Shown here in pieces: positions 5,612-20,415 of a DNA stretch of 64,000 nucleotides. Where the stretch lies: sequence record OP778609, one strand, 5' to 3'. The first letter of the stretch is position 1. Each line of letters starts with the position of its first letter. The position numbers and the translations under genes are program-made. The notes under the pieces were generated by a model. That model was not told the DNA's origin. It worked only from the letters and a program-made list of their open reading frames with translations, and made no database searches. Source of the stretch: Escherichia phage A73.

Positions 5612-5623
5612 TCACAAAAGGGG

Positions 5624-5652
5624 TTGACGAGAGTCACCCCCTGAGCTAAACT
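5624..5652 (+). promoter_or_regulatory. sigma70-type promoter TTGACG-17-TAAACT overlapping a hairpin
   Basis: -35 lies in stem GGGGTTGAC/GTCACCCC. Confidence 0.45.
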
Positions 5653-5681
5653 TCAGTTATCAAAACAAAGAGGAGAAAGAA

Positions 5682-6952: not shown

Positions 6953-7771
6953 ATGGCCTATCGTAAATTTGACCCACTAATCATTTATGAAGTTGTCCCA
7001 ATGAGTGTCTCCAATCCTCATGGTTTGCAATCACCTACTCCACTTGACCATAAGACAATGATCAGGAATGCAGAGTACACCTTAAGAGATCTTGAGAACG
7101 AAGAGATTGAAAGTGCTGTGCATGGATTGAAAGACCTGATCCGTGAACTTGATACGGATGATTCTGTTCAAGAATATATTGAAAAGTCAGAGGCGCTAAT
7201 CACGAAGTTTCATGAGTACCGCACTAAGGTATCGCGTATTCTTGATGAAGCTTTTGATCCTTCATCAAAAGACCCGATAAATGATGACAAGGCAATAGCC
7301 TTACTCAGCCAAATAGCTGACGCTACTGACAGCATGGACCCTGGTTTTGTAAGGGCTGATCATACCTGTGTAGATCAGTTTCCTTTAGCCTATCTTAAAT
7401 CCAAAAAAGCATTTGGTAGTCTGGCTTTTGTCTGGGAGTATGAGAAAGATTCCCTTACTCGTTACATCAATCGGGTAGGTAAGAAAGATACTTCAGTTAC
7501 GTTAAATATCTTTTGTGATGGTTCCTTGATGGTCCATAACAACTGGACAAAAGAGAGCATCCTCTTTGGTAAAGAAAGAGATCAGAAATTTAAACTGGTA
7601 AACTATATCCGTTTCGCAACAGAGGATAGTAAAATGGGTAAGTCATTTAAAGAGGAGGACTTTAAAACTTTCTTTGAGGATTGGCTTTCCCCAACAGAAG
7701 AAGAGATCCAACTCTTCAAGGCTGTAAATGGGGATGTTTCATTTGACCTGTACACACTCTTTAACGAGTGA
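6953..7771 (+). CDS. hypothetical protein (272 aa)
   Basis: ATG with CAGGAG RBS. Confidence 0.6.
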   Translation: MAYRKFDPLIIYEVVPMSVSNPHGLQSPTPLDHKTMIRNAEYTLRDLENEEIESAVHGLKDLIRELDTDDSVQEYIEKSEALITKFHEYRTKVSRILDEAFDPSSKDPINDDKAIALLSQIADATDSMDPGFVRADHTCVDQFPLAYLKSKKAFGSLAFVWEYEKDSLTRYINRVGKKDTSVTLNIFCDGSLMVHNNWTKESILFGKERDQKFKLVNYIRFATEDSKMGKSFKEEDFKTFFEDWLSPTEEEIQLFKAVNGDVSFDLYTLFNE

Positions 7772-7887
7772 TATTTGTTTGCTAAAACAAATTCAGATTT
7801 CAGATTCAAAATCTATTTGAGATATTTCCCTGTGATATTTGTTTCATGGGGAATTTTCAGATTTCAATTTGAAATTCTATTTGAGAT
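7768..7887. repeat. two imperfect ~57-bp direct repeats
   Basis: GTGATATTTGTTT..ATTCAGATTTCA..CTATTTGAGATA at 7768-7825 and 7832-7887. Confidence 0.7.
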
Positions 7888-8067
7888 AAATTTAAGACTC
7901 TTGCCACCGTGTTACATCCATACTGTTTCATTCCTACATACCCCGCACCACTAGAACAACTAAGCTGATGCCTCGCTTACAGACACATCCTCCAGATTCA
8001 ATACGTTACTGTTCCAGTGTACATACGACACAAAGCAAACATACGACACCAGTGACCAAAATAATTT

Positions 8068-8235
8068 GAGAACTTGAGGGGTTTTTCATTTTTTAGATCG
8101 TAACCTGAAAGTTGTGAACGAGAACTTGAGAGGTTTTTCGATAGAGAAATTAGGAACTTGAGAGGTTTTTCATTTTTAAGTTTGCATTTGAAATTGAGAA
8201 CTTGAGCTACAGGCCAGATACTTGAGGGGTTTTTC
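8068..8235. repeat. five copies of 18-20 bp motif GAGAACTTGAGRGGTTTTTC
   Basis: copies at about 8068, 8120, 8153, 8196 (half copy), 8217. Confidence 0.7.
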
Positions 8236-8568
8236 AAATTTCAGTTTCATTTCAAAATTTAAAAATTTTTTATATGCACAAAAATATAGGGGTTGTCAAG
8301 GTCTTTGATAAGAAATTTTTCAGGGGGTGAGAATTATTCTCATTTTCAGAATAGCAGGCAGGGGTGGTGATTGCTTCGTGAAACCGTCCTCATCACCATG
8401 AATACATAATATCACCATTCTTGATCCGAAAGCAAGAACATTTTAAAAATATTTTTCGGTAAATTTTGGGCGAGCTACCGGCGATCCACCTTACAACCTG
8501 GCGGCGATGCCTGGTATGTTAGCCCCGCCTTTACGCCGTGGGGATGGCGATTGTTTTCCTATGCAGGT

Positions 8569-8597
8569 AGTATGGCCCCTGGCGGGGCCGTTGTCAA
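8569..8597 (-). promoter_or_regulatory. candidate promoter TTGACA-17-CATACT reading leftward into ORF-free GC-rich region
   Basis: hexamers on minus strand immediately after stop of ORF 8600-8884; spacer also forms GGCCCC/GGGGCC hairpin, so may instead be a terminator-like structure. Confidence 0.3.
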
Positions 8598-8599
8598 CA

Positions 8600-8884
8600 T
8601 TATTTTTTATTTTCTTGCCAGGAAAGAACGCCTAACCAAAAATGCACGTTGCCCCGAGCGTCCTGCGGTATCTTGCTTTCTTTACCGCCACCACACGCCC
8701 AAAGATAACCATCGGTAAACGTATCAAGGTAGTCCATATCTTCCACCTTTCGATCCGCCAGGTTAAGGATAGTATTAACGTCTAAGCCTGTTGCGCTTGC
8801 TAACTGGTAGACCGTGCCGCCTTGCCAGCCTAACGAGTGCATAAGATGCAAAGTAGTAGTAGTAGCAGTAGTGATGGTAGTCAT
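8600..8884 (-). CDS. hypothetical protein (94 aa), GC-rich moron-like gene
   Basis: only minus-strand ORF inside the + block; Thr-rich N-terminus; visibly higher GC than neighbours; own promoter. Confidence 0.5.
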   Translation of the reverse strand: MTTITTATTTTLHLMHSLGWQGGTVYQLASATGLDVNTILNLADRKVEDMDYLDTFTDGYLWACGGGKESKIPQDARGNVHFWLGVLSWQENKK

Positions 8885-8935
8885 GGTGTCGCCCTTTCTT
8901 CTGTTGTTGTGCGCCCTGGTTGGCGCGGTAAAAAG

Positions 8936-8964
8936 ACTATAAATGATCTTCCTTTATATGGCAA
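8936..8964 (-). promoter_or_regulatory. sigma70-type promoter TTGCCA-17-TATAGT for ORF 8600-8884
   Basis: minus-strand hexamers, divergent from + promoter at 8999. Confidence 0.5.
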
Positions 8965-8998
8965 GGAAAAAGAAAATTAAAAAAGATTGAAAATAATG

Positions 8999-9027
8999 TT
9001 GACGTGGTGAATCTGGTAGCGTAGTAT
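8999..9027 (+). promoter_or_regulatory. sigma70-type promoter TTGACG-17-TAGTAT
   Basis: drives ORF 9085. Confidence 0.55.
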
Positions 9028-9084
9028 TCATCTCATCGAACGGCGACATGCCAACAAGTAAACAAATAAAAGGGCAACAACAAA

Positions 9085-9270
9085 ATGAATAAAAGAATTA
9101 CAAACGTAAATCCTGGCGAACGTTTCCAACATGAGGGGCATTTGCACACTGTAGTAAGCAACAAAGAGCATACTGTAAGAGTAAATAGAAATATCTTGCA
9201 ACTTCGCGATCGTTTTGGTATCGTACAGACTTACACTTTCGAAGCAAATAAAACAGTTAAAACTTTCTGA
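9085..9270 (+). CDS. hypothetical small protein (61 aa)
   Basis: ATG with AAAGGG RBS. Confidence 0.5.
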   Translation: MNKRITNVNPGERFQHEGHLHTVVSNKEHTVRVNRNILQLRDRFGIVQTYTFEANKTVKTF

Positions 9271-9617: not shown

Positions 9618-9623
9618 AAAGTA

Positions 9624-9652
9624 TTGACAGAAAGAAAGAAGTAAATTAAATT
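9624..9652 (+). promoter_or_regulatory. sigma70-type promoter TTGACA-17-TAAATT with leader hairpin
   Basis: followed by CACGTAA start motif and hairpin GCCGCAATCGTGCGGC (about 9665-9680). Confidence 0.55.
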
Positions 9653-9707
9653 ATACCACGTAACGCCGCAATCGTGCGGCAATAAAAACTGATAGGAATT
9701 GAACAAA

Positions 9708-9920
9708 ATGGCTAAAATCATCATTAAAAAATCCCGTGTATCTTCTGTTGCTCGCGTCGAAATGGTAAACACTATGCCAGGTTACCGGACTCGCGAGGAA
9801 GCCCGAAGCGTTGCAAAACAGATTAAAGCCCGTGGCTTAACTGTAAGTGCACCGACCAAAACACAAGAAGGATGGAAGGTATCTATTAAATCCGGTACAC
9901 TGTCAATCAATAAACACTAA
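9708..9920 (+). CDS. hypothetical basic protein (70 aa)
   Basis: ATG at 9708 preceded by AGGAA; track ORF begins at in-frame TTG 9699. Confidence 0.5.
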   Translation: MAKIIIKKSRVSSVARVEMVNTMPGYRTREEARSVAKQIKARGLTVSAPTKTQEGWKVSIKSGTLSINKH

Positions 9921-9936
9921 TAGCCAAAACATTAAC

Positions 9937-9952
9937 GGGGCAACTTTGCCCC
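9937..9952 (+). other. GC hairpin GGGGCA-loop-TGCCCC after stop (weak terminator)
   Basis: inverted repeat seen directly. Confidence 0.35.
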
Positions 9953-9983
9953 TCATTAAATAACATTATCCAGGAGTATTAAC

Positions 9984-10142
9984 ATGACTAGCCAAAACAC
10001 TAACATTGAAAAAATCAACATTACTAAAGAGCGTAAAGCATGGAATGAAACATTAAATCTCAAAGGTAAGAAGCTAAATAAAACTAAACGCGATCGCAGT
10101 ACAAAGCGGGCCTTTTGTGAATTTACAGCGGATCAAGAATGA
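9984..10142 (+). CDS. small basic protein (52 aa)
   Basis: ATG with CAGGAG RBS; ATGA coupling to next ORF; below track cut-off. Confidence 0.4.
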   Translation: MTSQNTNIEKINITKERKAWNETLNLKGKKLNKTKRDRSTKRAFCEFTADQE

Positions 10143-10438
10143 TGATTAAAGTTATTGCACTTACTACTTTATTGTGTATACCATTTTTGGCGCACGGTAC
10201 TAAGTTTTACGGTGCTAACTTGATAGATTGTAAAGCTCATATGCTGGACCATGAAACAGGCAACAAATTTGTTAAGCCTTTCCAGATCAATCCAGCGGCA
10301 TTTAGTGACGGTGTTTTGTATCAGGAAGGTAAAGCCAGTACGCTGATAATCCATTACGATCCAGCGACAAAGAAAGGTAGCTTATCAATCCAGATTGAAG
10401 GCGCGGAAGAGTTTTCAGGTAAAATAATCTGCAATTAA
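10139..10438 (+). CDS. putative secreted/periplasmic protein (99 aa)
   Basis: N-terminal signal-peptide-like segment MMIKVIALTTLLCIPFLAHG. Confidence 0.6.
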   Translation: MMIKVIALTTLLCIPFLAHGTKFYGANLIDCKAHMLDHETGNKFVKPFQINPAAFSDGVLYQEGKASTLIIHYDPATKKGSLSIQIEGAEEFSGKIICN

Positions 10439-10446
10439 TATGTTAA

Positions 10447-10476
10447 GGCCCGCCATTGTGCGGGCCTTTCTTTTAT
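10447..10476 (+). terminator. rho-independent terminator
   Basis: GGCCCGC-CATTGT-GCGGGCC stem followed by TTTCTTTT. Confidence 0.7.
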
Positions 10477-10498
10477 GAAAATAATTTTGAAAATGTTG

Positions 10499-10526
10499 TT
10501 GACAGCACCGATTAAAAGCGTATAAT
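10499..10526 (+). promoter_or_regulatory. sigma70 promoter TTGACA-16-TATAAT with no ORF downstream
   Basis: consensus hexamers; downstream hairpin CGGGGA..TCCCCG and RBS-like CCAGGAG but no start codon before the next promoter. Confidence 0.6.
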
Positions 10527-10616
10527 GTATTACATCAGGACGGGGAACCAAACAAGTAACTCCCCGTTAAGTAGTCCAGGAGTAAGACATACGAAAACCT
10601 CCCCTGATAAAATAGT

Positions 10617-10644
10617 TTGACAATAGTTTTTAGTACTGTATAAT
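10617..10644 (+). promoter_or_regulatory. sigma70 promoter TTGACA-16-TATAAT with leader hairpin
   Basis: followed by hairpin GGGGAGAATAGTTCTCCCC (about 10657-10675) then RBS AAAGGA. Confidence 0.65.
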
Positions 10645-10695
10645 ACATTACATCAAGGGGAGAATAGTTCTCCCCACATCAAAGGAATCAAAACA

Positions 10696-10923
10696 ATGGC
10701 TATCGTAATCACTCGCGTATCTGGTACAGTTGGCAATGCGGCAGTAGTAGCGGTTATCACTAACAAGAAAGGTGCGGAACTACATTTTGCAATGTATAAC
10801 TGGTCAGTTGATGAGTTTGGTCAGTACGCTAGTGTAGAATACATTGAAACCTATCAAGTGCCGTCGATTAGTTTAACTGATTTGGGCGTTGAGCGTATCC
10901 TTTGCCTGGATGAATTAAATTAA
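10696..10923 (+). CDS. hypothetical protein (75 aa)
   Basis: ATG with AAAGGAA RBS. Confidence 0.55.
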   Translation: MAIVITRVSGTVGNAAVVAVITNKKGAELHFAMYNWSVDEFGQYASVEYIETYQVPSISLTDLGVERILCLDELN

Positions 10924-10931
10924 AAAAGTAC

Positions 10932-10959
10932 TTGCAAAGTAAGTCGGATAAAGTATAAT
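10932..10959 (+). promoter_or_regulatory. sigma70 promoter TTGCAA-16-TATAAT with leader hairpin
   Basis: hairpin GGGGAGAAATGATTCTCCCC (about 10972-10991). Confidence 0.6.
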
Positions 10960-11008
10960 ACATTACATCAAGGGGAGAAATGATTCTCCCCACTAAAAGG
11001 AAACTAAA

Positions 11009-11152
11009 ATGAAAACTTGTCAGTGTGGTAAAAAGTCTATTACTGGTCTGCGTCGCGGTGTTGCTTTATGCCAGTATCATTACAATAGTCAAGTATGGGG
11101 TAAAACGTGGGCTGACCAGGTTGAAGCAGCAAATAAAGCAAAAAGTAATTGA
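11009..11152 (+). CDS. small Cys-rich protein (47 aa)
   Basis: ATG with AAGGAAA RBS; CQCG..CQYH motif; below track cut-off. Confidence 0.4.
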   Translation: MKTCQCGKKSITGLRRGVALCQYHYNSQVWGKTWADQVEAANKAKSN

Positions 11153-11176
11153 CAGTAAGAAGAAAAAGAGTAAACT
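11149..11176 (+). promoter_or_regulatory. sigma70 promoter TTGACA-16-TAAACT with leader hairpin
   Basis: followed by TACGTAG and hairpin GCGGCAATAGCGCCGC (about 11189-11204). Confidence 0.6.
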
Positions 11177-11227
11177 GTATTACGTAGAGCGGCAATAGCG
11201 CCGCCACATCAAAGAGAGAGAATCAAA

Positions 11228-11440
11228 ATGGCTAATATCCGCACTGCACTGAAAAATGCAAAACAAGTTTTATTCTCTGACGAGGAAGTATTTAATAAAG
11301 ATATTACAGGCGTTCGAAATCTTAAAGATATCTATGACATTTTCAGTATACGCATGAATATGAAACGTGTTGGAACGTTCGGGAATAAAGTACTGTATCA
11401 GAACGGTGATTATAATTTTACACTGACTATTATTAGTTGA
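11228..11440 (+). CDS. hypothetical protein (70 aa)
   Basis: ATG with AGAGAGAG RBS. Confidence 0.55.
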   Translation: MANIRTALKNAKQVLFSDEEVFNKDITGVRNLKDIYDIFSIRMNMKRVGTFGNKVLYQNGDYNFTLTIIS

Positions 11441-11459
11441 AAGTTTTAGTCTAGCGCTA

Positions 11460-11488
11460 TTGACTTAAACCGATAGTGCTGGCATAAT
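11460..11488 (+). promoter_or_regulatory. sigma70 promoter TTGACT-17-CATAAT
   Basis: hexamers; no leader hairpin. Confidence 0.55.
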
Positions 11489-11533
11489 AACTTTTATCAA
11501 GTAGTACAAATCAAACAAAGAGAGAATACAATC

Positions 11534-11773
11534 ATGGCTAATAACAAAACTTTCAACGGTCACAAAAACAAAACTCATTGGAATGTTTCCTTGTGGATTA
11601 ATAACGATGCATCACTGTATCGACTGGCTAATGATTTCATCGCCGCTAACACTAATCGTAACGATGCGGCCCGTCATATGATGTTATTTTTAGAACAAAC
11701 CGGACAACATAAAACACCGGACGGATTCAAGTATAGTACTACTGCAATCCGTGCCGCGATGGTTGGAATGTAA
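11534..11773 (+). CDS. hypothetical protein (79 aa)
   Basis: ATG with AGAGAGA RBS. Confidence 0.55.
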   Translation: MANNKTFNGHKNKTHWNVSLWINNDASLYRLANDFIAANTNRNDAARHMMLFLEQTGQHKTPDGFKYSTTAIRAAMVGM

Positions 11774-11787
11774 AAAGAAAAAAGTAG

Positions 11788-11816
11788 TTGACACAAACAA
11801 GCAAAACAAGTAAATT
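11788..11816 (+). promoter_or_regulatory. sigma70 promoter TTGACA-17-TAAATT with leader hairpin
   Basis: AAAAAGTAGTTGAC upstream block; CACATCA start; hairpin GCGGGGAATGGCCCCGC (about 11829-11845). Confidence 0.6.
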
Positions 11817-11866
11817 AATCACATCAGGCGGGGAATGGCCCCGCTAAAAGAGAAGAGAGAAATCAA

Positions 11867-12196
11867 ATGGGCTTTTTATCTATCGTACAGACTAACTTCG
11901 AAAATGATTTTATTGCTCAAGCTATCAACATTGACAAAGGTATCCCAAATATCAATTTTGGTTTCAATAGTGGTGGTTATGAGAGATACCAGTATTTTGT
12001 AACTGACGATGGAAGTGTTTTAGGTATCAATACGGTGATGGCTAATATCCAAAACATTAATTTCAATGATCCCGATGAGCGCTCATTCTATATCGTCGGT
12101 GTCCAGGTGAACTACAATGATGACTCTTTAATCGATGATTACACTGGCGAGACGTTAGAAAGTGCTTACAGTGATGAATCAGAAGAAGAAAACTAA
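11867..12196 (+). CDS. hypothetical acidic protein (109 aa)
   Basis: ATG with AGAGAGA RBS. Confidence 0.6.
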   Translation: MGFLSIVQTNFENDFIAQAINIDKGIPNINFGFNSGGYERYQYFVTDDGSVLGINTVMANIQNINFNDPDERSFYIVGVQVNYNDDSLIDDYTGETLESAYSDESEEEN

Positions 12197-12210
12197 TATT
12201 AAAAAAGTAG

Positions 12211-12239
12211 TTGACTGAAAGAGTATAAAGAAGTAAGAT
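12211..12239 (+). promoter_or_regulatory. sigma70 promoter TTGACT-17-TAAGAT with leader hairpin
   Basis: hairpin GGGGGAACATTTCCCCC (about 12253-12269). Confidence 0.55.
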
Positions 12240-12294
12240 AATTAACGAATAGGGGGAACATTTCCCCCGTAAACAAAAGAAAGAGAGATTAAAA

Positions 12295-12477
12295 ATGACA
12301 GAACTGATTGCAACTACAAAGATCGAAGGCGTTAACGATGTTACTTTGTCCTATGATCCTTCTACTCTGGTTTATGTTGTGAAATATGGCAGAATGATCG
12401 CAGAACTTGATTGCATTGATGAGGCTTTCGAAAAATATTTCGAACTTATCAATATTGCTTATGATGACTACCGTTAA
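12295..12477 (+). CDS. hypothetical protein (60 aa)
   Basis: ATG with AGAGAGA RBS. Confidence 0.5.
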   Translation: MTELIATTKIEGVNDVTLSYDPSTLVYVVKYGRMIAELDCIDEAFEKYFELINIAYDDYR

Positions 12478-12507
12478 TATACAACGCAAAAATAGGAAGG
12501 TGATAAA

Positions 12508-12717
12508 ATGATCAATGAAAAAACAATCAATGACGTTCGAGAGGAAGTTTTAGCCGTTGCCGTAGAATCTGGCGCACGTCAGGCATTTTGGAAAGCTACT
12601 GATCTTTACCCTGAGCAAGCCGAAAATATTCTCAATCAGGTCAGCGTTAAACTTGAACAAATGGGAAAACTGAAAACAAGTGAGCGCCTCGACCAAATCA
12701 TTAAAGAAAGTTTTTGA
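12508..12717 (+). CDS. hypothetical protein (69 aa)
   Basis: ATG with AGGAAGG RBS. Confidence 0.5.
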   Translation: MINEKTINDVREEVLAVAVESGARQAFWKATDLYPEQAENILNQVSVKLEQMGKLKTSERLDQIIKESF

Positions 12718-12781
12718 TTGACTTTTAACATTGCCCCTATTAGTATTCAGGGGCAAGATTAAAAGAAACAAGGACACAAAG

Positions 12782-13093
12782 ATGAACGATATTGTTAGCA
12801 TCATAGGTTTACTGGGCATAGGTTACATCGCCACATCAATTACAATGAGTTACTTCAATAAAAGGCGTGATAAAATGTTTTGTTACTTTGAGTATCGTTA
12901 CCGTGGTAAGGTTGGATCATCCCGTGACTATGGTCCGATGTTAGAGATTGATGCGGTTGGCGCTATGCAGTATCGCCAGTCACTAGGGGCTGAAATAATT
13001 TTTGAAGTGTACCGCAGTACAGAAGAAGAGATCCACGACATTATTGACGAGCGTCAATATTACCACGAACAACAAACTAAACGCAGGGCTTAA
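12782..13093 (+). CDS. membrane protein (103 aa, 1 predicted TM)
   Basis: internal ATG of track ORF 12731 preceded by AAGGACAC; hydrophobic IVSIIGLLGIGYIATSITM. Confidence 0.5.
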   Translation: MNDIVSIIGLLGIGYIATSITMSYFNKRRDKMFCYFEYRYRGKVGSSRDYGPMLEIDAVGAMQYRQSLGAEIIFEVYRSTEEEIHDIIDERQYYHEQQTKRRA

Positions 13094-13096
13094 CAT

Positions 13097-13237
13097 ATGA
13101 CTAATACAAACCGACAAAAAATCATCAAAACTAAAAAACTTGATTTCGATACTTATCAAGAATGTAAGAAGAAGAAAGTAAAAGATAAGCGAGAGAACAA
13201 GCGGCACGAATGGATCACTAATACAATCGATCTTTAA
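13097..13237 (+). CDS. small Lys-rich protein (46 aa)
   Basis: ATG 3 nt after upstream stop; below track cut-off. Confidence 0.35.
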   Translation: MTNTNRQKIIKTKKLDFDTYQECKKKKVKDKRENKRHEWITNTIDL

Positions 13238-13244
13238 CAATCAA

Positions 13245-13271
13245 GGCCCGCTATAATGTGGGCCTTTCTTT
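13245..13271 (+). terminator. rho-independent terminator
   Basis: GGCCCGC-TATAAT-GTGGGCC stem followed by TTTCTTT. Confidence 0.7.
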
Positions 13272-13284
13272 ATGGAGAACAGAC

Positions 13285-13512
13285 ATGATTAATATTCTTT
13301 CACTTACAGAAGTGATCCGCTTCCTCAAAAACAACGCCCTGGGAACGTCTATAACGTATCTAATCCCTCAAGGTAAGGATTATGCCAGTGTTACACGTTC
13401 AATCACTGCTACGGCCTCCAGAGAAGAAATAAAGGTCAGTGTAAGCCAATTGCTCATCGTTGATCCTTCCTCCTGTGAAACAATCCAGGCTGTAAAGATA
13501 ATTAGAAAATAA
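13285..13512 (+). CDS. hypothetical protein (75 aa)
   Basis: internal ATG of track ORF 13258 preceded by GGAGAA; avoids overlap with terminator stem. Confidence 0.45.
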   Translation: MINILSLTEVIRFLKNNALGTSITYLIPQGKDYASVTRSITATASREEIKVSVSQLLIVDPSSCETIQAVKIIRK

Positions 13513-13525
13513 TTTAAAAAACTTA

Positions 13526-13554
13526 TTGCATCCATTATCGAGAAGATGTACATT
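13526..13554 (+). promoter_or_regulatory. sigma70 promoter TTGCAT-17-TACATT
   Basis: hexamers preceded by A-tract. Confidence 0.45.
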
Positions 13555-13597
13555 AGTTTCATCAAGACGAGATGAAGATAACCCAAAGGTGATTGCT

Positions 13598-13891
13598 ATG
13601 TTATACGAAGTTTTTGCAGGTTTCTGTTTTTATGGTGCTGCCGCCGTTCGCCAGTGTGATGACTATGTAGTTGAGTCATTCGATGATCCTTTGGCGTGTG
13701 AGATTGTTACTACAGCTTATGAGCAAGATCGCCGTTGGATTAATCCAGCCTGTATCGCATCGCCTGAGGTTGAACCTATGCCGGAAGGTGAGGAATTAAC
13801 AGAGGAAGACTTGCAAGAAGTAAAAGAAGTTATGAGCTACATGATTGATAATCTGGACGCTGAAAACTTACAACGTGCATTGCAAAAATAA
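13598..13891 (+). CDS. hypothetical acidic protein (97 aa)
   Basis: internal ATG of track ORF 13526 preceded by AAAGGTG. Confidence 0.5.
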   Translation: MLYEVFAGFCFYGAAAVRQCDDYVVESFDDPLACEIVTTAYEQDRRWINPACIASPEVEPMPEGEELTEEDLQEVKEVMSYMIDNLDAENLQRALQK

Positions 13892-13905
13892 TTTTAAAAA
13901 AGTAG

Positions 13906-13934
13906 TTGACTCGAAGAAACAAAACAATTAAATT
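13906..13934 (+). promoter_or_regulatory. sigma70 promoter TTGACT-17-TAAATT with leader hairpin
   Basis: near-duplicate of promoter cassette at 11788; hairpin GCGGGGAATGGCCCCGC (about 13947-13963). Confidence 0.6.
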
Positions 13935-13978
13935 AATCACATGAGGCGGGGAATGGCCCCGCTGAACAAAAAGAGATT

Positions 13979-14359
13979 ATGAAAATGGCTAAAAATACTA
14001 ACGTTTGTGATTACGCTGATCTGGTTACTCTGAATGCAGATTCTAAAATCAACCTGTCAAACGTGGAAGCGGTGCACGTCCTGGCCCGCCGCTGGTTCCA
14101 AAAGTTATATGGTAATACTTATTTCTCTTTAAGTGTAGATGTGGAGATCGCTGGTAAATTGGTAGAAGTAGTTAACGTCCCGTTTAAATATGGTTATGGT
14201 GATCATTTCGATACCGTGGCACTGGAAGAATTTAGCAAGGTTATCAACATGGAAGGAAAAGAGTTTTCAGAGTATAGTTACCTTTCCCGTTTTTGCCGTG
14301 ACAATAACATCCCTGTTTATTCGAACGCTGTTGATGTTAAACGCAAAAAAGATATGTAA
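13979..14359 (+). CDS. hypothetical protein (126 aa)
   Basis: ATG downstream of promoter and hairpin. Confidence 0.6.
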   Translation: MKMAKNTNVCDYADLVTLNADSKINLSNVEAVHVLARRWFQKLYGNTYFSLSVDVEIAGKLVEVVNVPFKYGYGDHFDTVALEEFSKVINMEGKEFSEYSYLSRFCRDNNIPVYSNAVDVKRKKDM

Positions 14360-14365
14360 TTATTA

Positions 14366-14392
14366 TTGACAGTACATAGAAAACAAGTAAAC
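14366..14392 (+). promoter_or_regulatory. sigma70 promoter TTGACA-15-TAAACT with leader hairpin
   Basis: hairpin GCGGGAACACTTCCCGC (about 14408-14424). Confidence 0.5.
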
Positions 14393-14446
14393 TGTATTAC
14401 ATAGAAAGCGGGAACACTTCCCGCTTATATTCCAGGAGTAAGAGAA

Positions 14447-14698
14447 ATGATCGAACAAATCAAAACTACGACGGCTAATGTAACGGGTACAGTATCGCAC
14501 TTCATTAGTGATGAATCACGGGGCGTTCCTTATTGTGCAGTACATATAAACAAAAATGGCGACTACTGGTTAACGGCGTATGGATCTTATTCTTTCGGAC
14601 GTAGTGCACACCAAAAGATCCTAGATAAAGTACAGCCAACGGGTAAAAATATTACCGCTGAGATGTTTAATAAATCACTTGCAAAGTTAAAAGCGTAA
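14447..14698 (+). CDS. hypothetical protein (83 aa)
   Basis: ATG with CAGGAG RBS. Confidence 0.55.
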   Translation: MIEQIKTTTANVTGTVSHFISDESRGVPYCAVHINKNGDYWLTAYGSYSFGRSAHQKILDKVQPTGKNITAEMFNKSLAKLKA

Positions 14699-14706
14699 AG
14701 TATAAT
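14679..14706 (+). promoter_or_regulatory. sigma70 promoter TTGCAA-16-TATAAT with leader hairpin
   Basis: overlaps 3' end of ORF 14447; hairpin GGCGGGGAGTGTTTCCCCGCC (about 14718-14738). Confidence 0.55.
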
Positions 14707-14759
14707 ACATCACATCAGGCGGGGAGTGTTTCCCCGCCACAAAACGAAAGGCCAACAAA

Positions 14760-14930
14760 ATGAAAGCAAGCATGATGGTAGCGACTGTAAACATTATCAT
14801 TGGTAACGGAACTGGACACCACGAAATCATAAAAAACAAGGCTTACTCTATTAGCTCCCTCAAAAACGACATGCGTTTATCTTTGGGCCAAATCCGCGCT
14901 TACTTTCGTGAAGGCTATCAGAAAAAGTAG
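14760..14930 (+). CDS. small protein (56 aa)
   Basis: ATG with GAAAGG RBS downstream of promoter and hairpin; below track cut-off. Confidence 0.4.
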   Translation: MKASMMVATVNIIIGNGTGHHEIIKNKAYSISSLKNDMRLSLGQIRAYFREGYQKK

Positions 14931-14941
14931 CAAATTAATAG

Positions 14942-14970
14942 TTGACGCAAAGGTCATTTTAATTTAATCT
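14942..14970 (+). promoter_or_regulatory. sigma70 promoter TTGACG with weak -10
   Basis: consensus -35; -10 ambiguous (TAATCT or TTTAAT). Confidence 0.4.
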
Positions 14971-14998
14971 ATAACAAATCGACAAATGAGGCATAATC

Positions 14999-15301
14999 AT
15001 GTTTACCAAAGCAAATGAGTATTTCTTTTTAGATTTACTTGATGAAAGTATCTTTGTAGCTATGGGCAAAAAGTCAATGGTCTTTAAACGCAAAAAAGAT
15101 AATGGTGAATTTGAAGATAGCGAAGCCGTGCTAACAGTCAAGGAAGGTAAAGAACCTGCAACGTCTGTTTTAATCTACACCTTGACCAACGGCGGTGAAG
15201 TTATCGCATCAGGTAGTAGCCATCCGATCCCAAAATCGGAAGTGAACACTGTAATTATTGGTTTTGTTGCAGCTTGTTTCTACGAGGAAAAAAGCAAATG
15301 A
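14999..15301 (+). CDS. hypothetical protein (100 aa)
   Basis: ATG with GAGG RBS. Confidence 0.55.
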   Translation: MFTKANEYFFLDLLDESIFVAMGKKSMVFKRKKDNGEFEDSEAVLTVKEGKEPATSVLIYTLTNGGEVIASGSSHPIPKSEVNTVIIGFVAACFYEEKSK

Positions 15302-15462
15302 ATCCGCAAAATTTATCTTATGTAAACTGGCCCAATAAGGCTGAGAAGAAAGAAAACTTGAAACGTCTGGTTAACTTTTATCGTGAAGCTGGTCATAGTA
15401 AAGTAACAGCGGTTAAAATGGCAAAGCGCCACCTTAACAAGCCAAGTACTAAACTAATTTAA
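15298..15462 (+). CDS. hypothetical basic protein (54 aa)
   Basis: ATG overlapping upstream stop (ATGA). Confidence 0.45.
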   Translation: MNPQNLSYVNWPNKAEKKENLKRLVNFYREAGHSKVTAVKMAKRHLNKPSTKLI

Positions 15463-15470
15463 AAAACTTG

Positions 15471-15500
15471 TTGACGTTGGCTTGTGCCGTACCTATAATG
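15471..15500 (+). promoter_or_regulatory. sigma70 promoter TTGACG-18-TATAAT with inverted repeat spanning -10
   Basis: TGCCGTAC-CTATAATG-GACGGCA palindrome encloses the -10 hexamer. Confidence 0.55.
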
Positions 15501-15534
15501 GACGGCATAGGCAAACGAAATAGGATTTATAGAA

Positions 15535-15741
15535 ATGAAAAAGAAAATTGTATATAATATTATTAGCTTTATCGCAACTATCCTCCTGGCTATTGCTGGT
15601 CTATCTTTGATTGTTGCAGTAGGATCTCTGTTTCCTGGGGCAATAAGTATTAGCATAGCTTTCGCCGCATTGTCTGTTTTTACAGGGTATGCAGGGATTA
15701 AAGTTACTTACTGGTCAGAAGATTACAAATATTCAAACTAA
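15535..15741 (+). CDS. small membrane protein (68 aa, 2 TM)
   Basis: hydrophobic IISFIATILLAIAGLSLIVAV and ISIAFAALSVFTGYAGI. Confidence 0.55.
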   Translation: MKKKIVYNIISFIATILLAIAGLSLIVAVGSLFPGAISISIAFAALSVFTGYAGIKVTYWSEDYKYSN

Positions 15742-15754
15742 ATTGAGGTGTAAG

Positions 15755-15904
15755 ATGTACAAGCTATTAACCTGGGAAACAGAATCATCGTCACCGATCA
15801 GCCGGACCTTTTTTGATTTGTGCACGGCTTACAGGCTGGCAAAGGGAGGATATCATAAGGCCCAAATCATTGATGAATTTAATGTTATCCTTTATGAATT
15901 TTAA
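15755..15904 (+). CDS. hypothetical protein (49 aa)
   Basis: internal ATG of track ORF 15689 preceded by GAGGTG. Confidence 0.35.
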   Translation: MYKLLTWETESSSPISRTFFDLCTAYRLAKGGYHKAQIIDEFNVILYEF

Positions 15905-15951
15905 TCAATTCATACACTTAAAAGAAAGTTAGAAAAAGTTTTAAAAAGTGG

Positions 15952-15980
15952 TTGCAACAGGTATTGGATAGTAGTATAGT
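15952..15980 (+). promoter_or_regulatory. sigma70 promoter TTGCAA-17-TATAGT
   Basis: hexamers preceded by A-rich tract. Confidence 0.5.
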
Positions 15981-16033
15981 ACTTTCAACGGGGCGAGATG
16001 GCCCAAAACGAAAAAACTTGAAAGGTGATTATC

Positions 16034-16126
16034 ATGATGGCAATTTTCTTAGTTTCTCTTCTGGTTGCTGTATGTTCTGCCACTGCTGCCGCTGTACTTT
16101 ATGACACTCGCTACAATGAGGAATAA
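16034..16126 (+). CDS. tiny hydrophobic peptide (30 aa)
   Basis: ATG with AAAGGTG RBS; single TM-like segment; speculative. Confidence 0.3.
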   Translation: MMAIFLVSLLVAVCSATAAAVLYDTRYNEE

Positions 16127-16131
16127 TAAAA

Positions 16132-16350
16132 ATGAATATTGTCAACATTACAGGTAAGACCGAGATCCTTAAGAATCTTGCACCAGGTGAGTCCACCGTA
16201 TGGATCTGCAAAGATGGAGAAGTAGAAAAACAAATGAGATTGTTTACCGCTATTTGTTGTCGGTTAAACATGAAAGTTACACAAATCCGGTCGATGATTG
16301 TTAGTGTGGGAAACATTCCGACTGAATGCATAATTCTTACAAAGATTTAA
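16132..16350 (+). CDS. hypothetical protein (72 aa)
   Basis: ATG; RBS-like GAGGAA 12 nt upstream. Confidence 0.5.
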   Translation: MNIVNITGKTEILKNLAPGESTVWICKDGEVEKQMRLFTAICCRLNMKVTQIRSMIVSVGNIPTECIILTKI

Positions 16351-16357
16351 AAATAGC

Positions 16358-16385
16358 TTTACAACAACGATAAAATCAGTACAAT
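16358..16385 (+). promoter_or_regulatory. sigma70 promoter TTTACA-16-TACAAT
   Basis: hexamers upstream of ORF 16427. Confidence 0.45.
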
Positions 16386-16426
16386 ACAAATCAGGCAATA
16401 AAGCCGACTAAAGAAAGGTAAAGACC

Positions 16427-16666
16427 ATGCAAACTATTATCACTAAATTTCTTCCTCCTACTAATACCCGTGGCGCTCGCATCAAAGCAAAATGTTGGTT
16501 GACAGATATCACTATCGCCTATCCGGTAGCCGAGATCAACGAAGCCCATAAACTGGCGGCAGAAGTGTTAATTACAAAATTGAAGATGACAACAGATATT
16601 GATTGGAATATCGTTGCAAGCGGTGAAACACCGGACGGCAGCGGCTACGCTTTCATTATCAAATAA
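16427..16666 (+). CDS. hypothetical protein (79 aa)
   Basis: ATG with GAAAGG RBS. Confidence 0.55.
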   Translation: MQTIITKFLPPTNTRGARIKAKCWLTDITIAYPVAEINEAHKLAAEVLITKLKMTTDIDWNIVASGETPDGSGYAFIIK

Positions 16667-16683
16667 TCATAAAGCGGCGGGAA

Positions 16684-16702
16684 TAGTTCCCGCCTTATTA
16701 AA
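16684..16702 (+). other. orphan leader-type hairpin GGCGGGAATAGTTCCCGCC without promoter
   Basis: same stem-loop class as promoter-proximal hairpins, located between stop of ORF 16427 and RBS of ORF 16721. Confidence 0.6.
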
Positions 16703-16720
16703 GAGAAAAGAGAAGATATC

Positions 16721-16999
16721 ATGACTATTACTAAATTATCCACCGAAGAGATCACCAACATTCTGACTACTAATCTTGAAGATTGGAAGCGTGAAGCTGA
16801 TTTGCAAGCAACCTGTAAGCTGAATACAGAGCTAACATCAGACGATATTGAAACGATCGTCCATGCTGATTTCTATGATGCTTTGCATGATGATTCTATC
16901 ATCCTTGAAACGATGCTAGATAATGCCTGGATTAATCCCGATTTGGCGGCGTATGGTCGTAGCACCTTTATCACTATCCACAATATTTATAACCGTTAA
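16721..16999 (+). CDS. hypothetical protein, paralog A (92 aa)
   Basis: about 50% identical to ORF 17671 (MTIxKLSTEEI..LTTNLExWKREAD..ITIHxIYN). Confidence 0.6.
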   Translation: MTITKLSTEEITNILTTNLEDWKREADLQATCKLNTELTSDDIETIVHADFYDALHDDSIILETMLDNAWINPDLAAYGRSTFITIHNIYNR

Positions 17000-17126
17000 G
17001 AGGCGATAAATGGTCCTGTAACAGCCTAAAACGGCGAAAGTATGCAATCACCTTACTTGACGATATTCTACGCACTGGCTTACACTGGGGCTTTTAAAAG
17101 GGCACAAAATAATTCGAAAAAAGTAG

Positions 17127-17154
17127 TTGACGGCAATTAATAATCTGGTAAAGT
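17127..17154 (+). promoter_or_regulatory. sigma70 promoter TTGACG-16-TAAAGT with leader hairpin
   Basis: CACGTAAG start; hairpin GGCGGCAATAGCGCCGCC (about 17167-17184). Confidence 0.6.
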
Positions 17155-17201
17155 GTACCACGTAAGGCGGCAATAGCGCCGCCATTAAAGAGATAAACGA
17201 A

Positions 17202-17588
17202 ATGAAACAAGAAATCATCAATGAAATTATTAGCGGTTACAAAGAAGCCTTTATTTTCGCTGAATCAGCAACAGATCAGCACGGGGAGTATATCGATAAC
17301 CTTGATCCTTATGACTTCTCCCAGGATGCAAACGACCGGATCGCCCAGGATGTGACAGCCTTTATCAATGCTAATGTTGCCGCTATCTCTGAAGCGATGA
17401 GCGACGGCGCTACAGCCAACCAGATCGGGAATGATTTACATTTTACCCGTAACGGTCACGGTGTAGGCTTTTGGGATCGCCCTGAAATATACACCACTAA
17501 CACGGCTAACCGTTTGAGCAATGCCGCTAAATTAATGCCTAACGTGTCAGCTTACATTGGGAAAGATAATCTGATTTATATTGAATAA
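17202..17588 (+). CDS. hypothetical protein (128 aa)
   Basis: ATG with AGAGA RBS. Confidence 0.6.
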   Translation: MKQEIINEIISGYKEAFIFAESATDQHGEYIDNLDPYDFSQDANDRIAQDVTAFINANVAAISEAMSDGATANQIGNDLHFTRNGHGVGFWDRPEIYTTNTANRLSNAAKLMPNVSAYIGKDNLIYIE

Positions 17589-17594
17589 AAAGTA

Positions 17595-17622
17595 TTGACA
17601 AGCTGAATCAACCTGATAAGAT
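17595..17622 (+). promoter_or_regulatory. sigma70 promoter TTGACA-16-TAAGAT with leader hairpin
   Basis: CACATAG start; hairpin GGGGCGACAAGCGCCCC (about 17633-17649). Confidence 0.55.
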
Positions 17623-17670
17623 GTATCACATAGGGGCGACAAGCGCCCCGCCTAACAGAGAGATAGAATC

Positions 17671-17949
17671 ATGACCATCGCCAAATTATCCACCGAAGAA
17701 ATCGAACAAGTGTTAACTACTAACCTGGAACAATGGAAACGTGAGGCAGATATACAATCAGCAAAATGGCTTAACGAGAAGTTAACACCGGATGATCTGA
17801 GTAAGATTATAGATCCTCAATTCTATGAAGATATTCACGACACGGCGTTATCCGTTGAGGATGTACTCGATAAGCATTACATTGCTACTGATTTGCAGGT
17901 TTACGGGCGTAAAAACTTTATTACTATTCACGACATTTACAATAACTAA
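17671..17949 (+). CDS. hypothetical protein, paralog B (92 aa)
   Basis: paralog of ORF 16721. Confidence 0.6.
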   Translation: MTIAKLSTEEIEQVLTTNLEQWKREADIQSAKWLNEKLTPDDLSKIIDPQFYEDIHDTALSVEDVLDKHYIATDLQVYGRKNFITIHDIYNN

Positions 17950-17984
17950 GGGCGGCAACGCCCTACAACTAAAAGGGTAATATT

Positions 17985-18179
17985 ATGACGTTAGCAACAT
18001 GCACCGGATCAAAAATTGCTTGCTTTGAGTTTATGGAAGACTATGAAACGACAGCTATCACCGATCAATATATCACCGTGATCACGCGTGACGGTATCGC
18101 CTGGCATGTTCCGGTTTATGATGGGGATACCTATGAAGTCACCGACAGCGGCGGCAATACAGCTATCTTTGTTGTCTAA
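17985..18179 (+). CDS. hypothetical protein (64 aa)
   Basis: ATG with AAAGGG RBS; preceded by hairpin GGGCGGCAACGCCC. Confidence 0.5.
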   Translation: MTLATCTGSKIACFEFMEDYETTAITDQYITVITRDGIAWHVPVYDGDTYEVTDSGGNTAIFVV

Positions 18180-18192
18180 GGGGGGAAACACT

Positions 18193-18420
18193 ATGCACAA
18201 TAACATCATTACCGATCGTGCCGCTACTATGCGCCCTGGCGATCGGGCACGTTTACAGATCGGCGCTTATCCGTTCCCTACCTATGACTTTTGCAAAGTA
18301 ACCGCTATCGAAAACAATCCCTTTGATCCTGATACCGTGATCATCTGGTACGAAGGAAAGGGAAATAAATTTGAAGACATTTTGGGGCGGGATGAGCATA
18401 TCAATATTATTCGTTACTAA
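18193..18420 (+). CDS. hypothetical protein (75 aa)
   Basis: internal ATG of track ORF 18088 preceded by GGGGGG. Confidence 0.5.
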   Translation: MHNNIITDRAATMRPGDRARLQIGAYPFPTYDFCKVTAIENNPFDPDTVIIWYEGKGNKFEDILGRDEHINIIRY

Positions 18421-18538
18421 TCGCCACCTAACAGCCTAAATAGTAGGAGGCAATGCAATCCCCTACTCAATGAGAATGGAGCGCCCTGGCTTATGCTGGG
18501 GCGTTCTACGTTACAGCAAAATAATTTTAAAAATACAC

Positions 18539-18567
18539 TTGACGTTCGCCAGGTGAGCGGGTATATT
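18539..18567 (+). promoter_or_regulatory. sigma70 promoter TTGACG-17-TATATT with leader hairpin
   Basis: CACGTAGG start; hairpin GCGGCAATAGTGCCGC (about 18580-18595). Confidence 0.6.
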
Positions 18568-18616
18568 TTATCACGTAGGGCGGCAATAGTGCCGCTCACT
18601 GACTGGAGCTATCATT

Positions 18617-19018
18617 ATGGCCTTTACAATCACCTCTTACACTGACGTTGCCAACATTGCTAAAACTTTCGGCCCTGAAGCCCTTAAGTATGCGGTATCC
18701 AATGGTAAACTAACGAAAGAGCAATGTTACCTGATTGGAAGCTGTAAACGTTGGGCGGCATCTCGTAACATCGAGATTGAAAACGTAAATGATGGTAACA
18801 TCGAGTATAGCGTTGATGCAGTATTCAAGGCCGTGTATTTGGGCGGTATCTACAATACCAATCTTAATGATGTTCGTATCGTTCGCACTGGTTTTGGGGC
18901 TTATGATGTTCCAGTCCGCGAAGCTATGGAAAAAGGTTATATTAATCCAGCTATTTTAAGTATGATCATGACTGAGGCCAAAGAACGTAACGAAGTACGG
19001 GCCATCCTGGGCCTGTAA
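18617..19018 (+). CDS. hypothetical protein (133 aa)
   Basis: ATG with GGAG RBS. Confidence 0.6.
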   Translation: MAFTITSYTDVANIAKTFGPEALKYAVSNGKLTKEQCYLIGSCKRWAASRNIEIENVNDGNIEYSVDAVFKAVYLGGIYNTNLNDVRIVRTGFGAYDVPVREAMEKGYINPAILSMIMTEAKERNEVRAILGL

Positions 19019-19039
19019 TGAAATATTAATCGAAAACTA

Positions 19040-19067
19040 TTGACACGGATCGTCAATATGCTAATAT
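19040..19067 (+). promoter_or_regulatory. sigma70 promoter TTGACA-16-TAATAT with leader hairpin
   Basis: CACGTAGG start; hairpin GCGGCAATATCGCCGC (about 19080-19095). Confidence 0.6.
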
Positions 19068-19122
19068 TTATCACGTAGGGCGGCAATATCGCCGCTCACC
19101 CCTTAAAAGAGCGAGATCTAAA

Positions 19123-19338
19123 ATGGCGTTAACAAAACAAGAAATCATCGACCGCATCAAAGAGTCAACTGGCGAGAATATTGGTAATGGTTTAATTGTT
19201 AAAGTTCTTGATTATTCAAATAATCCCCTGGCACCGGAACCAGTGGCTTACAAATTATCCTGGATATCCGTATTTAGTGGTAAGCGTACAAGATGCGTAT
19301 ACTATCCGAACACCGTGGGGCGTCAGTACTGTAAATAA
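19123..19338 (+). CDS. hypothetical protein (71 aa)
   Basis: ATG downstream of promoter and hairpin. Confidence 0.5.
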   Translation: MALTKQEIIDRIKESTGENIGNGLIVKVLDYSNNPLAPEPVAYKLSWISVFSGKRTRCVYYPNTVGRQYCK

Positions 19339-19398
19339 AGGGCACTTTAATATTAATAAGGGGCGGCAACGCCCCAGGTCAACCAAAGGGAAACAACA

Positions 19399-19605
19399 AT
19401 GAGTATTGCAATGATTAGCTCATCCGACATTAAAAAGGCTTTATCTGTATTGCGCTATCACCATAGAAGGAAGGTAATCAATGACGAGAGCTATCTAGAT
19501 TCATCGTTAGAAAGCGATACGTTGGAAGCCATTTCAAAATTATCTGATTTGCATAAACGCATGACCGAAAGCAACCGATCCGACTTCATAGGGGGCGAAA
19601 TATGA
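19399..19605 (+). CDS. hypothetical protein (68 aa)
   Basis: ATG with AAAGGG RBS; starts MSIAM like next ORF. Confidence 0.5.
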   Translation: MSIAMISSSDIKKALSVLRYHHRRKVINDESYLDSSLESDTLEAISKLSDLHKRMTESNRSDFIGGEI

Positions 19606-19862: not shown

Positions 19863-19873
19863 GTTCGACAAAA

Positions 19874-19900
19874 GGGCTTGACTTGTTCAGCCCTTTTTTG
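19874..19900 (+). terminator. rho-independent terminator
   Basis: GGGCT..AGCCC stem followed by TTTTTT. Confidence 0.7.
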
Positions 19901-20026
19901 CTATTCTTATCAAACGGGCGGCACCTGGGAACAGGGGGAGGTAATCACTGGACGACTCCGCTATACAGTGATAGTAAATAGCTATCAATAATCTCCAAAA
20001 ATAAAATAAAACCTATCGAGTCTTTA

Positions 20027-20370: not shown

Positions 20371-20415
20371 TATCTCTCGTAGGGCAAACATTCAAAACAT
20401 CAAAAAGGGTACAAA

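Follow-up and report, generated by a model that had tools for sequence, protein, structure and literature searches.

We have analysed a 64,000-nucleotide stretch of Escherichia phage A73 (sequence record OP778609; hereafter the window), which represents a Vequintavirinae-like myovirus of Escherichia coli, and have concentrated on a small gene that occupies the minus strand at 8600-8884. The first ~22 kb of the window form a block of small plus-strand genes, and this gene runs against them. We have found that the gene is real, that its expression signals and the slot in which it sits are conserved, and that the cassette is a mosaic. Overall, it is probably a genuine immediate-early gene in a conserved accessory slot whose content is exchanged by recombination, and it would be part of a leftward unit with three tandem early promoters (P0, P1, and P2). 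The gene and its immediate frame consist of the following features (UTR, untranslated region; PeSL, promoter early stem-loop):

8600-8884, minus strand: protein-coding gene of 94 amino acids with an ATG start, GWQGGT family (phrog_19316); recognised by homology, third-position bias, and an AlphaFold2 (AF2) model
8843-8881, minus strand: run of ACT, ACC, and GCT codons encoding TTITTATTTT; its length differs among close relatives
8892-8926, minus strand: 5'UTR with the hairpin GCGCC-aaccag-GGCGC (8911-8926) and the ribosome-binding site AAGAAAGGG (8892-8900); same layout as in the plus-strand early genes
8936-8964, minus strand: predicted promoter P0 of the gene, TTGCCA (8964-8959), 17 nucleotides, TATAGT (8941-8936); found by scan with 10/12 matches, with an A/T-rich tract upstream, and conserved in homologous loci
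8569-8597, minus strand: predicted composite promoter/stem-loop P1 at the stop codon, TTGACA (8597-8592), 17-nucleotide spacer with the hairpin GGCCCC-gcca-GGGGCC (8574-8589), -10 box CATACT (8574-8569); PeSL-like

The coding status of the open reading frame (ORF) 8600-8884 can be judged from its relatives. Compared with phAPEC8-type homologs, it shows 14, 5, and 33 differences at codon positions 1, 2, and 3, respectively, a pattern that supports a real gene under purifying selection. A previous sequence-only reading had reported a minus-strand frame of 94 codons with a Thr-rich N-terminus encoded by ACT/ACC repeats, and it is indeed there: the 5' end reads ATG ACT ACC ATC ACT ACT GCT ACT ACT ACT ACT TTG, corresponding to MTTITTATTTTL. 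The conserved core starts from residue 7/8 (MTTTTLHLMHSLGWQGGTV...). Ahead of it, the window allele has a Thr-rich N-terminal expansion of six codons. That is, the homologs of 88 amino acids start with MTTTTLHLMHSLGWQGGTV, while the Thr run of the window and its nearest relatives is longer by 5-6 codons; 11, 11, or 10 residues precede LHLM in the close relatives, compared with 5 in the 88-residue homologs. Near-identical phages carry different versions of this run (MTTITTATTTT, MTTITTTTTTT, and MTTITTTTTT, vs MTTTT), and the variation in length is consistent with slippage in the ACT repeat.

The ORF had also been described as visibly richer in GC than its surroundings. This enrichment is real but modest. 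On windowed analysis the ORF has a GC content of 46.7% and a third-position GC content (GC3) of 47.4%, compared with 40.3 +/- 3.1% and 38.7 +/- 5.5%, respectively, for the 109 ORFs of the window; 3.9% of 285-nucleotide windows reach the GC of the ORF, corresponding to a z-score of about 2. The GC maximum of the entire 64 kb lies at 8471-8755 (52.3%), and is driven mainly by the non-coding DNA at 8463-8599 (59.1% GC) that adjoins the ORF. As to the statement that this is the only minus-strand gene in 22 kb, it is the only one with family support; other mechanical minus-strand ORFs of at least 60 codons do exist (7998-8237, 15459-15656, 16032-16331, and 20609-20974), and no PHROG family was found for the other minus-strand ORFs in the first 22 kb.

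The promoter proposed for the gene, TTGCCA-17-TATAGT, divergent from a neighbouring plus-strand promoter, has been recovered in our scan as P0. It stands back to back with the following element:

8999-9027, plus strand: predicted divergent early promoter TTGACG-17-TAGTAT, from the promoter scan; serves the plus-strand early block from 9085

The scan found 10 sites where 9.3 are expected in shuffled sequences, that is, a single match is not above chance. What is kept in the homologous loci is the whole set of signals, namely P0, the 5'UTR hairpin GCGCC-N6-GGCGC, the ribosome site AAGAAAGGG, and the start codon. In the window, each plus-strand early gene is preceded by signals of the same kind, i.e., an A/T-rich tract, a near-consensus sigma70 promoter, a GC-rich 5'UTR hairpin, and a purine-rich ribosome site. 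Vequintavirinae are reported to have sigma70-type early promoters with UP elements and early regions that depend on the host polymerase, and the layout of the early block in the window agrees with these published regions (PMC7344957; PMC3606486). We infer that the gene is transcribed, and that the host sigma70 RNA polymerase would read it leftwards from P0, against the surrounding early genes.

To place the gene in its wider setting, we have gathered about 25 loci via a conserved 26-mer, a covariance model, and protein look-ups. On the far side of the gene, three further features belong to the unit:

8445-8562, minus strand: block B, candidate small RNA directly downstream of P1, with a core at 8463-8552 (59% GC); conserved and non-coding
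8406-8435, minus strand: predicted second tandem minus-strand promoter P2, TTGCTT (8435-8430), 18 nucleotides, TATTAT (8411-8406); recognised from relatives
8321-8405, minus strand: block A, conserved non-coding element downstream of P2, ending in the palindrome GTGAGAATTATTCTCAT (8327-8343); recognised by conservation

Read along the gene strand, all of the ~25 loci show the same order: first P0, then the small genes (one to three), then P1 abutting the stop codon, followed by block B, a direct repeat TGTAAAGA, P2, and block A with the terminal palindrome ATGAGAATnATTCTCAT in one to four copies. In Vequintavirinae and Stephanstirmvirinae alike, the interval from this promoter frame to block B is a conserved slot for small minus-strand genes. 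In the interval 8300-9100, the window is 94% identical to Escherichia phage UPEC06 and 84-92% identical to W70, A5-4, and A7_1, all of them unclassified Vequintavirinae of 137-145 kb. Presence or absence in related phages had been suggested as a check, and the outcome does not favour a recent acquisition: we have seen no empty slot, and it is filled in all five close relatives and in the about 25 more distant loci.

What fills the slot varies. The GWQGGT-family filler (88 amino acids in the homologs) is found in the window, UPEC06, W70, A5-4, phAPEC8, phi92-like phages, Av-05, and several metagenomic phages, and one further locus (L132) carries two paralogs of this family. The alternative filler is an unrelated gene of 60 codons encoding a DUF7170 protein, found in PVP-SE1 (gp201) and in Klebsiella and Raoultella phages. 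Both fillers are richer in GC and GC3 than their own genomes (36-44% GC) wherever they are present. Since the excess is common to all homologs and to the DUF7170 gene, it should be a trait of the locus and not a sign of recent arrival.

We have further compared each relative with the window at the nucleotide level, segment by segment. In W70, the flanks are 95-100% identical, while identity within the ORF is 61% for the C-terminal half, 76% for the N-terminal half, and 38% at the start. The metagenomic contig L131 has flanks of 92-99% and an ORF of 38-67% identity. In both, identity falls from 92-100% to 38-75% exactly between P1/the stop codon on one side and the start codon/5'UTR on the other. 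A5-4 shows the reverse, with an ORF allele of 92-98% identity and a block B of only 68%. These profiles indicate that the gene and block B are independently replaceable modules in a fixed frame. No donor lineage of the W70 allele was found in GenBank phages, where the next best match is 65%.

The sharp boundary at the stop codon coincides with P1, which is parsed upstream of 27/27 block B copies. Its -35 box is preceded by the AT-rich AAAATAAAAAATAATG, and its spacer hairpin (-14.8 kcal/mol) is kept across copies with at least 7 different stem sequences. PeSL elements, which belong to the hyperplastic regions of T4-like phages, are sigma70 promoters with an AT-rich upstream region and a stem-loop mostly between -35 and -10; they flank ORFans, mark the breakpoints of gene replacement, and are a substrate of recombination, and experiments on T4-like phages have established their activity both as promoters and terminators and in recombination (Arbiol, Comeau and Krisch 2010, PMC2839356; Comeau et al. 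2014, PMC4122927). P1 resembles them in several respects: the predicted promoter is of the early sigma70 type and has an AT-rich tract upstream, a GC-rich stem-loop separates its -35 box from its -10 box, and it is positioned between small genes of unknown function, with a gene replaced between near-identical phages and breakpoints in the conserved regulatory flanks. It differs in lineage (Vequintavirinae/Stephanstirmvirinae) and in having a conserved non-coding block, not a gene, downstream. Furthermore, promoter/terminator activity and the formation of mini-circles are experimental results in T4-like phages, while P1 is a prediction. We therefore call the locus one PeSL-like early cassette in inverted orientation, and do not claim that it is a PeSL.

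Put together, the proposed working of the unit is as follows. The slot would open a leftward unit with one promoter for each part, namely P0 for the gene, P1 for block B, and P2 for block A, and the limits of the slot would be the P0/5'UTR-hairpin region on one side and P1 on the other. We infer for the P1 stem-loop a role in attenuating transcription through the gene, after which P1 would restart it. The conserved flanks may serve as recombination sites, through which the gene would be exchanged as a cassette between phages, as for the PeSL cassettes of T4-like phages.

The product belongs to a widespread family. By tblastn the gene is matched in 141 phage records; a search of a collection of 5.8 billion proteins returned 10 clusters at 46-90% identity, and a profile search returned 187 representative clusters. 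The match to phrog_19316 is full-length (E = 7.5e-49, residues 8-94 on profile positions 2-88 of 88). Among 61 aligned relatives, all match phrog_19316 and 60 match phrog_33408, both of which are listed in PHROGs v4 with function unknown. The family signature is ALGWQGGT(I/V)HQ(V)A..TGL, followed by G and then by GN..FW.GV. Its N-terminal half is invariant (LGWQGGT-HQ-A--TGL) and its C-terminal half is variable; compared with most phrog_19316 members, the window allele differs by the Thr-rich N-terminal expansion of six residues and by its C-terminal half. A search of the rest of the window for a paralog of the gene found none. The N-terminal module LGWQGGT(I/V)HQ...TGL..(E/D)QI also occurs in larger proteins of 161-561 amino acids (P0089, P0094, P0120, P0134, P0144, and P0155), at the N-terminus, at the C-terminus, or internally, so it seems to behave as an independent small domain. 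These larger proteins contain no Pfam domain and no informative fused domain. Another apparent longer relative, P0079, was discarded as a spurious leucine-rich repeat match to the profile without the GWQGGT motif.

The AF2 model of the protein is all-helical with 5 helices, at a predicted local distance difference test score (pLDDT) of 89.7. The predicted product is of ~10 kDa with an isoelectric point (pI) of 5.4. Kyte-Doolittle hydropathy peaks at 0.82 for windows of 19 residues, and the protein has no hydrophobic or transmembrane segment and no Cys-containing N-terminal lipobox. According to the model and the sequence, it is predicted to be a soluble, acidic, all-helical protein. Superinfection exclusion in its usual membrane form, which had been mentioned as a frequent function of morons, is unlikely for such a product, while an anti-defence role is possible; the protein matches no PADLOC-DB model and no anti-defence protein of solved structure. 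Our tentative guess, held at somewhat less than even confidence, is that the protein is an accessory factor which would bind some macromolecule of the host or phage early in infection (host takeover or counter-defence), with the C-terminal half as the specificity part. We make this guess because of the immediate-early signals, the small, soluble, acidic, and helical product, and the build of the protein, in which the N-terminal half is invariant and the C-terminal half can be swapped, many alleles being carried by phages that are otherwise identical. A literature search on DUF7170 and the PHROG identifiers returned nothing relevant.

The explanation by an exchanged accessory slot has to be weighed against several others. 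In the sequence-only reading, the gene was taken as a horizontally acquired moron, of a kind that often encodes superinfection exclusion or anti-defence functions. As a classic moron, it would be a recent capture from a higher-GC source, equipped with its own promoter and terminator and serving superinfection exclusion or anti-defence. Much of this picture agrees with what we have observed: the gene is inverted, has its own promoter, differs in composition (46.7% vs 40.3% GC), and has an accessory character with alleles exchanged horizontally between near-identical phages. The part that fails is the foreign insertion peculiar to this phage, as Vequintavirinae and Stephanstirmvirinae have the slot and its frame in common, and no empty slot was seen. 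The expression signals are of the native early-gene type, the GC/GC3 excess is common to all homologs and the DUF7170 alternative in many genomes, and the protein is without a membrane segment or lipobox, unlike typical exclusion proteins. The phage is also of virulent type, with no lysogeny module seen. The lambdoid morons (the Hendrix/Juhala concept, summarised in PMC2839356) share with this gene the single-gene unit, the own promoter, the terminator-like hairpin, the orientation against neighbouring transcription, and the differing base composition; they are, however, scattered insertions absent from relatives and thought to arise by illegitimate recombination, whereas here the slot and frame are conserved over two subfamilies and exchange would proceed via conserved flanks. 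Overall, a classic moron seems unlikely. We give about the same low weight to a Cro-like helix-turn-helix (HTH) regulator acting on the back-to-back early promoters, or on the tandem P1/P2 and the nearby palindromes. By eye, an HTH-like residue pattern can be seen at residues 25-42. In a profile-profile comparison by hhalign with a Cro/CI alignment (434 Cro, 434 repressor, P22 C2, SinR, and lambda cI), however, the probability was 3%, with the wrong helices aligned; Pfam HTH_26 gave E = 0.18, below the cut-off, no significant fold match was obtained, and the protein is acidic. In addition, the palindromes and promoters are equally conserved in phages with DUF7170 in the slot, so they are not private operators of the gene.

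A partnership between the protein and block B, as an RNA-binding partner, a chaperone, or a toxin/antidote pair, is very improbable. Homologs at only 32-36% identity (L132 and L138) still have block B after them, and with only the P1 hairpin as a terminator between the two, the mRNA of the gene may include block B in its 3'UTR. Nevertheless, block B occurs in 227 phage records compared with 141 for the gene and otherwise follows DUF7170; the two are replaced independently, as in A5-4 (gene allele 92-98%, block B allele 68%); and the family member in a 350-kb phage is accompanied only by a marginal block-B-like match (19.7 bits, E = 0.054), ~1.1 kb away and on the opposite strand. The idea that the ORF is open merely by chance, on the strand opposite to some other feature, can practically be dismissed. 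Overlapping plus-strand ORFs are annotated as hypothetical proteins, antisense to the gene or over its 5' end, in phAPEC8 (gp009, L002 3044-3385), UPEC06 (L001 6546-6686), and A5-4 (A54_63, L134 2040-2168), and the phAPEC8 record leaves the minus-strand gene unannotated. The chance reading is refuted by conservation at the protein level with third-position bias, the PHROG match at E = 7.5e-49, the confident fold prediction, and the conserved ribosome site and start codon, and the plus-strand annotations are probably mis-calls.

On the other hand, several observations weigh against the accessory-slot explanation or limit its reach. All promoters rest on sequence and conservation, recombination in the flanks is read from identity profiles, and shuffling of the PeSL type is documented in T4-like phages only. 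The homolog in the 350-kb phage is co-oriented with its neighbours, so the inversion is not family-wide. The closest alleles differ at 9 nonsynonymous vs 3-4 synonymous codons, and as the ratio of nonsynonymous to synonymous substitution rates (dN/dS) does not clearly exceed 1, these differences do not demonstrate an arms race. The protein had no match in Pfam, NCBIfam, or PADLOC, and the 61 relatives had none in Pfam; searches of PDB by sequence (both the single protein and the profile) and by fold gave no match, and the structural relatives in BFVD are all uncharacterised.

Block B is the part of the locus that is most worth following up. It occurs in 227 GenBank phage records from two subfamilies and is unannotated in nearly all of them. 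Across Stephanstirmvirinae, Seunavirus, Certrevirus, and Mydo-like Klebsiella/Proteus phages it retains 80-88% identity where the surrounding DNA mostly no longer aligns, and it is better conserved than any neighbouring gene. A coding function was considered and rejected: indels of 1 and 5 nucleotides put the conserved nucleotides in different frames, and on the plus strand eight sequences have ACG in place of the single ATG. Known RNA families do not account for it. At the gathering score, Rfam gave no match in the whole window, and permissive scoring of 7700-9100 gave noise only (up to 21 bits, E >= 0.04); the search for tRNA and transfer-messenger RNA (tmRNA) found none, block B has no similarity to E. 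coli genomes, and a search of the transcriptome and small-RNA literature for these phages returned nothing relevant. A 14-mer scan of viral contigs was too unspecific, giving mostly chance matches.

RNAalifold predicts two hairpins in block B, one of them short (CGCC-N7-GGCG) and the other long and imperfect, with GGCGG/UCGCC closing it. The 16 pairs are 98.4% paired, with double changes at only 2 pairs, and the stability is no better than that of shuffled sequences (folding z-scores from -1.6 to +1.0). Signal recognition particle (SRP) RNA, a tRNA T-arm, a DnaA box, an H1 loop/internal-loop pseudoknot, a replication origin, and an R-loop primer were considered by eye, and are unsupported by variation or Rfam. 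Block B also exists in different alleles. The type-2 allele, found in about 13 records including A5-4 (L134 1641-1768), A7_1, Ro1, cardinal, and several Klebsiella, Pectobacterium, and Erwinia phages, keeps both ends and has its centre swapped for an unrelated, better-paired hairpin. L138 shows a third, shorter self-complementary centre. We favour the idea that block B would act as RNA rather than DNA, because an invariable promoter stands before every copy. It may even be an undescribed phage small-RNA gene, with the lone gene merely a variable passenger ahead of a conserved early RNA module; we hold this possibility a little below an even chance, based on its own sigma70 promoter in 27/27 copies, its non-coding nature on both strands, its absence from Rfam, its conservation, its two alleles, and its use as an insertion site by an HNH gene.

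This HNH gene (197 codons, phrog_953) is located at the same point of block B in L017 (6267-7138), which resembles Raoultella phage Ro1, and in Justusliebigvirus cardinal (L139 1778-2645), and the two proteins are 87% identical. After the gene comes a new PeSL-like promoter and then a complete type-2 copy of block B. The window locus itself is without the HNH gene. The gene is predicted to be expressed from P1, and the arrangement has the pattern of a homing endonuclease beside a conserved target, carrying an alternative target allele. In intron-less homing, free-standing HNH endonuclease genes lie next to conserved targets. The present case is similar in that the insertion point is the same in two subfamilies with a divergent target copy alongside, and differs in that the putative target is a non-coding block and not a protein or RNA gene of known function. 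HNH genes are abundant in Vequintavirinae (PMC7344957).

Further along the unit, P2 reads TTGCAA-17-TATATT in most relatives, preceded by TTTGTAAAGAnTTGTAAAGA. This sequence forms a direct repeat just upstream of P2 in most phages (e.g., L005 and L003), and the window has a degenerate A/T-rich version of it at 8436-8460. A similar motif (TCTTTACAATTCTTTC) lies ahead of the plus-strand early promoter at ~20.05 kb, and another in a 350-kb phage contig (L135 3818-3840); the repeat may be an upstream promoter element that these sites have in common, or it may bind a factor. For block A, no Rfam match was found. The palindrome GTGAGAATTATTCTCAT, which is unique in the window, is a conserved feature where the leftward unit ends, and it is repeated 2-4 times at ~30-bp spacing in relatives (L132 4790-4910; L138 2785-2845). 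Compared with the Fur box (TGATAATnATTATCA / GATAATGATAATCATTATC), the palindrome at 8327-8343 has 2 mismatches to the 7-1-7 form, and the two matches in the window are not above chance (14/100 shuffles).

Some observations concern the surroundings of the locus. In the intergenic gaps of 9618-21690, nearly all plus-strand early genes have a cassette of AAAAAGTAGTTGAC..., 17 nucleotides, TAnAnT, ATCACATCAGG, a GC hairpin, a purine-rich ribosome site, and ATG. In some instances the hairpin overlaps the -35 box or the spacer and is followed by a T-run (e.g., 5612-5681 and 19863-19900), which suggests composite terminator/promoters. To the left of the unit, 7772-8320 is a repeat-rich stretch of ~550 nucleotides without a supported gene. 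Within it, ACTTGAGRGGTTTTTC occurs four times (8068-8240) and a direct repeat of ~55 nucleotides is present (7771-7885). The stretch is found only in the close relatives of the window and is absent from PVP-SE1; the small minus-strand coding sequences annotated at its equivalent in UPEC06, W70, and A5-4 have no family support. In addition, the records MG0656xx ('Campylobacter phage'), OP562383 ('Acinetobacter phage'), and OR584014 ('Pseudomonas phage') carry a locus of the Stephanstirmvirinae type with the same identity as E. coli phages, which suggests mislabelled hosts or contaminating coliphages.

Overall, an apparent foreign moron can be reclassified as one cassette of a conserved, recombination-prone early accessory slot. 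Two large subfamilies of coliphages that are candidates for therapy share this slot, in which small genes of unknown function are swapped between otherwise identical phages. The gene itself adds a new member to a family that is widespread and uncharacterised. Determinants of host range and counter-defence are usually found in such accessory slots, and for this reason it is sensible to inspect this slot where near-identical phages differ in their behaviour on one host. The analysis also extends the PeSL idea, that is, promoter/stem-loop cassettes as recombination handles, beyond T4-like phages. Finally, an unannotated, promoter-driven, non-coding element in more than 200 sequenced phages, which is at the same time a target of a putative homing endonuclease, could be a new early phage RNA.

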